64,000 nucleotides of DNA from a plasmid, in assembly GCF_055900595.2 (NCBI RefSeq), contig NZ_JBVWEU010000002.1. One strand, 5' to 3'. Numbering within the stretch: the stretch's first letter is position 1; the number at the start of each line of letters is the position of its first letter. This document shows, one piece after another, positions 37,293 through 38,248 of this stretch. The translations under genes and the position numbers were made by a program. A model generated the notes under the pieces. That model worked only from the letters and a program-made list of their open reading frames with translations. It was not told the DNA's origin and searched no databases.

Positions 37293-37493
37293 ACCACACA
37301 CGTTAATTCATTTATATCTAATCGGGGTTGTACGCCGGAAACGCCGAAATTTCCGATACAGCGAATTTGTTGATTTTTGAAGCATGTTTGGAAGGTTTTG
37401 ACGTGTACGTTTATGGTGCAGTAAGTGAGAATTTATTCGTACCAGCCATATGATACGTTACGGGCAGTGATTTTTCGCGCTAGACAGCTATTT

Positions 37494-37746
37494 GGGGTTT
37501 GGGGAGTAGTGGAACTCAAAAGGCGGTTAAGCGGTTCAATTGAATGGTCAATAACAGGTAAATCAATCTGTTGAGATCAACAACGTCGTTTGTTCCGCAA
37601 ACGGCCAGGATGAGTAAAGCCAACTTGGCCCCCCCCAAAACAGATAGCCAAGAACGCAGATTCACGATGTAAATTGGCTGGTTGATTTTTGGCTATTTAA
37701 AATGACCGCTTAACGGCGGTTATTGTTCCACTGAGCCTCAAACCCC
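37494..37746. repeat. Pair of inverted Tn3-family 38-bp terminal repeats about 250 bp apart (miniature Tn3-derived element or internally deleted transposon)
   Basis: Arms GGGGTTTGGGGAGTAGTGGAACTCAAAAGGCGGTTAAG and (reverse complement) GGGGTTTGAGGCTCAGTGGAACAATAACCGCCGTTAAG resemble the Tn3 IR GGGGTCTGACGCTCAGTGGAACGAAAACTCACGTTAAG. Confidence 0.5.
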
Positions 37747-37969
37747 GAAACCTGGATTTTTCCGCGACCAGTAACGGCGTGGGTTGTCACATAAACGACC
37801 GATTGAGTGACTGTCACTGAAACAACGATTTCTGCATCAGATTTCGTCACATAACCCGTCACCTATTCAACGTCATGCAAATCTGTCAATTACTGGCTTT
37901 GGTTACGGAATTTTCTAGGTTTTCGGCTTAGAACCCCAAATAGTCTTAACGTGGTTTATTTTCCGAATT

Positions 37970-38248
37970 TCAAGCGCCCCCCTGGATGAGCGTGATGATT
38001 ACTGGCGGACCTTTGACGTTCCAGCAAATTCCCCTGTTCCACATAGGTTTCCAGATATGACCGGTTATTTTCACGTTCGGTGTACGTGTTACAGCTGCAT
38101 TATCAATATCATCAGGGATAAAATTGTAAGATCGTGGAAAATGTTTATTCATAGCCCGGATGATGGCTGTCTGTGCATCCTTTGTTCGGGCGCGGTGTTT
38201 CCATTCACGCCAGCCATCCACCTCAGAAATAATAACAGTAATCATCAA
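37970..38248 (-). CDS. Hypothetical protein
   Basis: 92-aa ORF between the Tn3-IR pair and the FinO-domain gene; no recognisable motif. Confidence 0.2.
   Translation of the reverse strand: MMITVIISEVDGWREWKHRARTKDAQTAIIRAMNKHFPRSYNFIPDDIDNAAVTRTPNVKITGHIWKPMWNRGICWNVKGPPVIITLIQGGA

Follow-up and report, generated by a model that had tools for sequence, protein, structure and literature searches.

What are two Tn3-type terminal inverted repeats (IRs) doing face to face, about 250 bp apart, on a ColV-type virulence plasmid? An earlier note, made from the sequence of the 64,000-nt stretch of plasmid DNA analysed here (the window), had described them as a miniature element bounded by 38-bp IRs or else as a larger transposon reduced to its collapsed ends. 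Each description turns out to be right in a sense, as the segment, which we call TIME1, is made of two ends of a parent transposon and has spread as a unit. [quoted passage not shown] We consider it highly likely that TIME1 is a non-autonomous element of this class, derived from a ~3.87-kb Tn3-family transposon with the order IR-tnpA-tnpR-(res)-IR, that it belongs to a mobile family, and that the copy in the window is a fossil.

The positions proposed for the facing repeats were exact (Table 1), and a repeat search extended the inverted arms to 64 nt, with 70% complementarity and 131 nt between them. With the Tn3 IR, the right arm agrees at 31 of 38 positions and the left arm at 25; with the gamma-delta IR, the figures are 30 and 27. 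Against the IRs of Tn21, Tn1721, and Tn501, both arms reach only 18–19/38. Among the references, the gamma-delta IR was verified on the F plasmid and that of Tn1721 was seen in one of the compared loci (L020). When nine reference IRs were searched against five shuffles of the whole window, 0–3 positions reached at least 24/38, so a facing pair with a 31/38 match is far beyond chance. The earlier note had made its reading depend on the arms aligning to Tn3-family IRs better than chance, and they do. Its observation that no transposase lies between the arms was also borne out: no ORF of at least 50 aa with transposase character occurs between the arms, and tblastn with Tn3-family TnpA returned no match anywhere in the 64,000 nt. 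TIME1 has several of the features by which a TIME is recognised, namely IRs related to the ~38-bp repeats of Tn3-family transposons (GGGG...TAAG), a size within ~50–500 bp, and absence of a transposase gene.

Table 1. TIME1, its internal parts, and the neighbouring elements, in window coordinates.
Feature	Position	Strand	Description
E3, first 170 bp	37324..37493	+	other miniature Tn3-family element, 265 bp when complete, cut where TIME1 begins
TIME1 (our label)	37494..37746	.	complete 253-bp miniature Tn3-family element, non-autonomous
TIME1 left 38-bp terminal IR	37494..37531	+	GGGGTTTGGGGAGTAGTGGAACTCAAAAGGCGGTTAAG; corresponds to the tnpA-side end of the parent
Left subterminal block	37532..37575	+	highest mean conservation in the family (0.96); IHF-consensus match at 37561–37573
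Junction segment (TIME1 positions 83–109)	37576..37602	.	presumed deletion scar; conservation 0.80
tnpR-upstream-homologous region	37603..37708	-	putative res and tnpR promoter region, by homology to parents
C8 homopolymer	37629..37636	+	lineage-specific replacement of an ancestral TTTGGCTACCGCA half-site
TIME1 right 38-bp terminal IR	37709..37746	-	GGGGTTTGAGGCTCAGTGGAACAATAACCGCCGTTAAG, read 37746–37709; corresponds to the tnpR-side end of the parent
E2	37747..37937	+	miniature Tn3-family element, 205 bp when complete; outer 14 nt of left IR missing here
Solo Tn21-type IR	37945..37982	-	GGGGGGCGCTTGAAATTCGGAAAATAAACCACGTTAAG; 28/38 to the Tn21 IR

TIME1 is one member of a widespread family. 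Copies 100% identical to it occur in 76 PLSDB plasmids of ColV/ColBM type, and 295 PLSDB records match it, 142 of them near full length, in Escherichia, Shigella, Salmonella, Klebsiella, Enterobacter, Serratia, Xenorhabdus, Arsenophonus, and Pantoea. Among complete E. coli genomes, 188 of 5,426 (~3.5%) contain a match and 142 (2.6%) a near full-length one. These matches fall at 193 places on plasmids and 7 on chromosomes, none of which carries an annotated feature; annotation pipelines miss such elements because they encode nothing (PMC13367494). We aligned 12 copies with their flanks and found the same ends and internal structure throughout, with 69–97% pairwise identity and unrelated flanking DNA. 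In total, full-length family copies lie in at least 11 distinct flanking contexts in at least six genera.

Insertions of TIMEs duplicate 5 bp, sometimes 6 bp, of the target. Three family copies are flanked by the 5-bp target duplications that the earlier note had suggested looking for; the window copy is not. Perfect direct repeats surround the copies on a 4.4-kb ColE1-type Klebsiella plasmid (AAAAC; L002), on an Enterobacter bugandensis plasmid (AACGT; L003), and in an E. coli chromosomal island (AACTA; L024), these being the only three among ~11 sites examined. For the Klebsiella copy there is also an empty site: 4.1-kb sister ColE1-type plasmids read ...cagAAAACagcgctg... unbroken, and the filled plasmids read cagAAAAC[252 bp]AAAACagcgctg, inside the rop gene, a base-exact correspondence. 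Family members have therefore inserted at many sites, and the duplications together with the empty site are the signature of Tn3-family transposition.

Several individual copies merit description. The Klebsiella copy (L002 1501–1752, K. quasipneumoniae pWP3-W18-CRE-02_8), compared with the empty site L025, lies in codons 5–7 of rop, the copy-number regulator of ColE1-type plasmids, and in L002 the pipeline places the start of a rop ORF within the element; a higher plasmid copy number may result from the insertion. The chromosomal copy (L024 1501–1764, E. coli OkiPb01714) lies in a conjugative-island-like region with TraG nearby and has an internal 11-bp tandem duplication (GGTTGATTTTT). No empty site was found for it among E. 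coli genomes with that island, six of six being filled. In a Pantoea stewartii contig (L022 ~399–520), a ~122-bp derivative has been miniaturised further: the left ~105 nt of the element run directly into the final ~13 nt of the right IR. A livestock-plasmid copy (L026), matching through 'TATTT', is flanked by ATATT and ATTTG, with no duplication, and is uninformative. Among species-representative genomes, the exact 23-nt core was present in two only, Pantoea stewartii and Erwinia typographi, a number too small for statistics on flanks.

Where does the family come from? The right ~80–140 bp of TIME1 match the DNA just upstream of a recombinase and Tn3-family transposase gene pair in Xenorhabdus nematophila plasmid II (L011), Salmonella Minnesota pCFSAN017963_01 (L013), and Salmonella Poona pATCCBAA1673_02 (L031). 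The transposons of this parent clade, which are unnamed in the records and occur in Salmonella, Xenorhabdus, and Klebsiella plasmids, are ~3.87 kb long and organised as IR-tnpA(992 aa)-tnpR(207 aa)-151 bp-IR. The S. Poona copy is intact, at 3,871 bp with a flanking direct repeat TTCAAA. Against the NCBIfam Tn3-family model NF033527, the parent TnpA reaches 948 bits; TnpR is an atypical serine recombinase with weak NCBIfam matches. TnpA proteins of at least 60% identity occur in ~57 PLSDB records, and those of E. coli and Shigella are mostly truncated.

Both ends of TIME1 align with the ends of these transposons, whose IRs are homologous at up to 37/38 positions and whose tnpA and tnpR genes TIME1 lacks. 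In the S. Poona copy, the tnpA-side end is 82% identical to TIME1 positions 1–61 and the tnpR-side end 97% identical to positions 172–236; the tnpR-upstream regions of the parents are 85–97% identical to TIME1. Compared with the IR of the Xenorhabdus transposon, the left IR of TIME1 matches at 29/38 and the right IR at 30/38, and the right IRs of two other family members (L004, L005) at 37/38. The right IR of TIME1 is a variant with a Tn3/gamma-delta-like tip, and the likeness of its arms to the Tn3 and gamma-delta IRs holds at the level of the subgroup only, with the true parent in another clade. We ruled out Tn3 and gamma-delta themselves as parents. Their subgroup has divergent tnpA and tnpR with res between them, whereas in the parent clade the two genes point the same way, with 29 bp between them, and the parent TnpA and TnpR are just 45% and 27% identical to the gamma-delta proteins.

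Positions 83–109 of TIME1 have no counterpart in the alignment with the sampled parents, which implies that the immediate parent is unsampled, and we presume that the left ~110 bp of TIME1 come from such a closer relative. Two partial matches considered as a closer left-end parent, H242 (positions 3–69) and H237 (positions 1–124), were rejected as copies truncated by other insertion sequences. A 196-aa serine recombinase encoded in the window (17640–18230) is an unlikely cognate resolvase, being 30% identical to the parent TnpR.

Conservation within the family is highest not at the tips but just inside them: positions 39–82 (0.96) and 171–215 (0.94) exceed both the two IRs (0.91 and 0.86) and the middle (0.77–0.80). 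In the left subterminal block, the sequence AATCAATCTGTTG at 37561–37573 matches the IHF consensus WATCAANNNNTTR exactly, with 0.02 such matches expected per 253 bp at the window's rate. IHF sites adjoin the ends of gamma-delta, and we infer that IHF would bind the left subterminal block of TIME1 at this place.

On the other side, TIME1 has kept about 144 of the 151 bp that separate the IR tip from the start of tnpR in the parent. Apart from the 29-bp tnpR-tnpA gap, the parent's only non-coding stretches are these 151 bp and 77 bp on the tnpA side; given how short the gap is, the tnpR-side interval is the only room for the parent's res. Half-site motifs of the type TTGGC/GCCAA start at 37619, 37625, 37647, 37674, and 37689 in TIME1, so that positions 110–215 hold five where 0.44 are expected, a number reached in 0 of 2000 shuffles. 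The Salmonella parent has a 30-bp dyad, TAGCCAAA-N14-TTTGGCTA, another dyad built from this half-site, and a fifth half-site 51–61 bp from the IR tip that is mirrored at the opposite end; a dyad TAGCCAAAA...TTGGCTG is also seen in the parents. The TIME1 interior shows no similarity to the res of gamma-delta. Judging by position, homology, and motif symmetry, TIME1 probably carries its parent's putative res. The C8 run that the earlier note had pointed out inside the element is real and lies in this region. At its place, other family members and the parents have CTAYCGYA, and the run is C7 in L007 and in the E. coli chromosomal copy, L024, and C8 in the window and in L026. In the window lineage it degrades one putative res dyad, the change lying within one putative resolvase subsite.

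These observations suggest the following history. An internal deletion would have removed tnpA and tnpR from a ~3.87-kb transposon and left a miniature unit that kept both terminal IRs, the conserved subterminal blocks, and nearly the whole interval from the IR to the start of tnpR. Movement would be replicative, as in the Tn3 family generally, with TnpA supplied in trans by a full-length relative binding the IRs and producing a cointegrate; the existence of full-length relatives with matching ends lends this indirect support. The cointegrate would then be resolved by the relative's TnpR acting on the res-like dyads, with their TAGCCAA half-sites, or by homologous recombination.

Around the window copy, the DNA is 99.6–100% identical to that of IncF plasmids of the ColV/ColBM type from E. 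coli, avian-pathogenic strains among them, such as pAPEC-O2-ColV (NC_007675). On one side of this copy is a truncated ABC-transporter gene belonging to the accessory region, and on the other is the F-type backbone, at its finO end. TATTT precedes the copy and GAAAC follows it. It lacks a target duplication because on each side it abuts the interior of another miniature element, E3 on the left and E2, which is unrelated to TIME1, on the right. E3 is complete in L019–L021 and present in ~396 PLSDB records; its IR alone matches Pseudomonas syringae and Erwinia plasmids at ~94%. E2 reads GGGGTTCCAGGCCGGAAACC...CGGCTTAGAACCCC when complete, as in L014–L018, one of which (L017) has a target duplication GAAAT, and it occurs in ~220 PLSDB plasmids, including small colicin plasmids. 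The GTCACATAA repeats that the earlier note had listed with TIME1 are real, at 37786–37794 and 37846–37854, but they sit inside E2. E2 holds these and GTCAC/GTGAC repeats, including a 28-bp dyad-like TGTCACATAAACGACCGATTGAGTGACT, and the GTCAC-type repeats are conserved in E2. Neither E2 nor E3 resembles the published IS101, MITESen1, TIME244, or IMU above shuffled controls. We found no parent for E2: a match in Kosakonia is not beside tnpR or tnpA, and in L016 the adjoining recombinase gene points towards E2, not away from it.

Beyond E2, whose right IR lies 7 bp inside the inner edge of the solo Tn21-type IR, the outer tip of that IR abuts the finO side of the F-type backbone and overlaps the 3' end of a small ORF beside finO. 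The solo IR marks the exact boundary between backbone and accessory region, and the window copy of TIME1 is a rearranged, immobile fossil at this junction. Two routes would most simply have produced it. Two TIME1 copies in direct repeat, one in E3 and one in E2, might have recombined through res or by homology; alternatively, intramolecular replicative transposition might have deleted the intervening DNA. The copy has since been inherited with the ColV-type plasmid backbone. We searched PLSDB for the reciprocal junction that the two-copy route predicts, had TIME1 first entered an intact E3 (the right end of TIME1, TATTT, and the rest of E3), and found no record with at least 80% coverage.

Elsewhere in the window, an 852-bp unit (17425–18276) with facing Tn21-type IRs encloses only the gene for the 196-aa serine recombinase. 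Having no transposase, it is of the 'TIME-RES' type of Szuplewska et al. 2014, and its flanks, TTAGC and AAGGA, show no duplication. Its IRs are of the same type as the solo IR, so the ~20.5-kb block 17425–37982 might be bracketed by them. A 336-aa ORF (16052–17062) that resembles, by eye, an IS110-family transposase lies to the left of this unit, ~360 bp from its Tn21-type IR at 17425. Some members of the IS110 family target Tn21-type IRs.

How does TIME1 compare with miniature Tn3-family elements already described? We took the sequences of IS101, MITESen1, TIME244, and IMU from Table S2 of PMC13367494 and scored local alignments with TIME1 against shuffles. Here the comparison proposed in the earlier note has a divided outcome: TIME1 fits the class, but it is unlike these four members. 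IS101 of pSC101 is a 209-bp TIME that is mobilised by gamma-delta/Tn1000 and has a functional res (PMC13367494; PMC4133298). Like TIME1, it has Tn3-subgroup-type IRs, no transposase, a resolution-site region between the IRs (putative in TIME1), and 5-bp duplications. However, its local score with TIME1 is 22 (shuffle mean 17.9, maximum 27), with only the ~11-nt IR tip matching; the two have different parents, the TIME1 interior being unrelated to the gamma-delta res; and the mobilisation in trans and resolution that are proven for IS101 are, for TIME1, predicted. TIME244, a 244-bp TIME with a putative Tn21-type res for which resolution has been proposed (Gomi and Yano 2026, PMC13367494), shares with TIME1 the order IR-putative res-IR, a res assigned by homology to the parent, and a distribution that is plasmid-borne, rarely chromosomal, and missed by annotation. 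Yet TIME244 has Tn21-subgroup IRs and a Tn21/Tn1721-like res, whereas the IRs of TIME1 are closest to the Tn3/gamma-delta type and its res-like region is different. MITESen1 (a 256-bp TIME) and IMU (288 bp) are like TIME1 in size, in Tn3-family IRs, and in having enterobacterial plasmid hosts, and their copies often have no direct repeats (Fig. S4 legend of PMC13367494). The scores of MITESen1, TIME244, and IMU with TIME1 are 16–22, within the shuffled distributions.

Other explanations of TIME1 can be weighed against this evidence. If a full-length transposon at this spot in the ColV plasmid had simply lost its middle, TIME1 would be a one-off remnant, and its origin as two ends of a larger transposon and the missing target duplication in the window speak for such a collapse. 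However, a ~252-bp unit with the same internal junction is found at at least 11 unrelated sites across genera, three copies having 5-bp duplications and one a base-exact empty site. Independent identical deletions at so many sites are implausible, which excludes collapse in place, and we give that account almost no credence. It is similarly hard to believe that TIME1 exists mainly as a structured RNA or as a regulatory signal, such as a small RNA, a terminator, or a promoter cassette. Its predicted fold is indeed strong (-106.5 kcal/mol, z = -8.5), and TIME1 contains one promoter-like and one terminator-like match, but the fold comes from the two terminal IRs pairing with each other, expected for any such element, and the promoter and terminator counts equal the shuffled background. 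No Rfam family comes near threshold (best 15.9 bits versus 50), and the duplicated flanks and the empty site identify the element as inserted DNA.

The agent of movement is another matter. Tn3 and gamma-delta transposases are end-specific, and it is unlikely that in E. coli TIME1 was mobilised by the transposases of Tn3/Tn2 or gamma-delta, and not by those of the parent clade, its right IR tip having shifted accordingly. In favour of this idea, the right IR of the window lineage is about as close to Tn3 (31/38) and gamma-delta (30/38) as to the parent (30/38), whereas other lineages score 34–37/38 to the parent and just 21–26/38 to Tn3/gamma-delta. It also has a precedent in IS101, which is moved by gamma-delta (PMC13367494, PMC4133298), and it accords with the rarity of full-length parents in E. 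coli, where most are truncated. Against it, the left IR is nearer the parent (29/38) than Tn3 (25/38), and the parent TnpA is only 45% identical to that of gamma-delta. Finally, TIME1 might be an element that already has a name, be it IS101, MITESen1, TIME244, IMU, or another one listed in ISfinder or TnCentral. Members of this known class have been described from enterobacteria (PMC13367494, PMC4133298), yet the alignments to the four published sequences score no higher than shuffled controls, whether the whole element or just its interior is aligned, MITEKpn1 and MITESen1 (PMC13367494 Table S2) differ from TIME1, and six IR strings looked for in full texts led to no paper. In January 2026, ISfinder had only three Enterobacteriaceae MITEs (PMC13367494). 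We regard a prior name as quite improbable. The TIME1 family thus appears, by comparison of sequences, to be unannotated and to match none of the four published miniature elements, the class itself being known.

A broader question is whether such elements attract one another. The window has five IRs of four types within 660 bp. In other plasmids, E2 lies directly against an E3-type IR (L015), E3 lies 3 bp from a Tn1721 IR (L020), and a MITESen1-like IR lies 133 bp from E3 (L019). In an unrelated Enterobacter plasmid (L029), a stretch of 2 kb holds E2, TIME1, and a fragment of TIME1. Of 20 copies outside the window, 3–4 have a foreign IR within 150 bp, versus ~0.9 expected, which is suggestive only. 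One could imagine that miniature Tn3 elements insert at, or recombine beside, other Tn3-family ends and so build nests of ends, which would serve as hot-spots of recombination where backbone meets accessory DNA. We think this generalisation doubtful; if it were true, the hot-spots would concern virulence and resistance plasmids.

Two bracketing copies of miniature Tn3-derived elements can move the genes between them (PMC13367494); in the copies examined here, we saw no resistance-gene composite bounded by TIME1. The named families occur in 0.4–2.3% of genomes (PMC13367494), a figure for a different set, Enterobacteriaceae, to be set beside the ~3.5% of E. coli for TIME1. For ColV/ColBM virulence plasmids, TIME1 explains an otherwise opaque junction and provides a marker for their rearrangement history. 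With a parent clade, an empty site, and a putative res, the family also offers a defined case for studies of mobilisation and resolution. Since the class and its mechanism are already established, no concept is changed; TIME1 is useful for annotation and plasmid archaeology, and conceptually ordinary.
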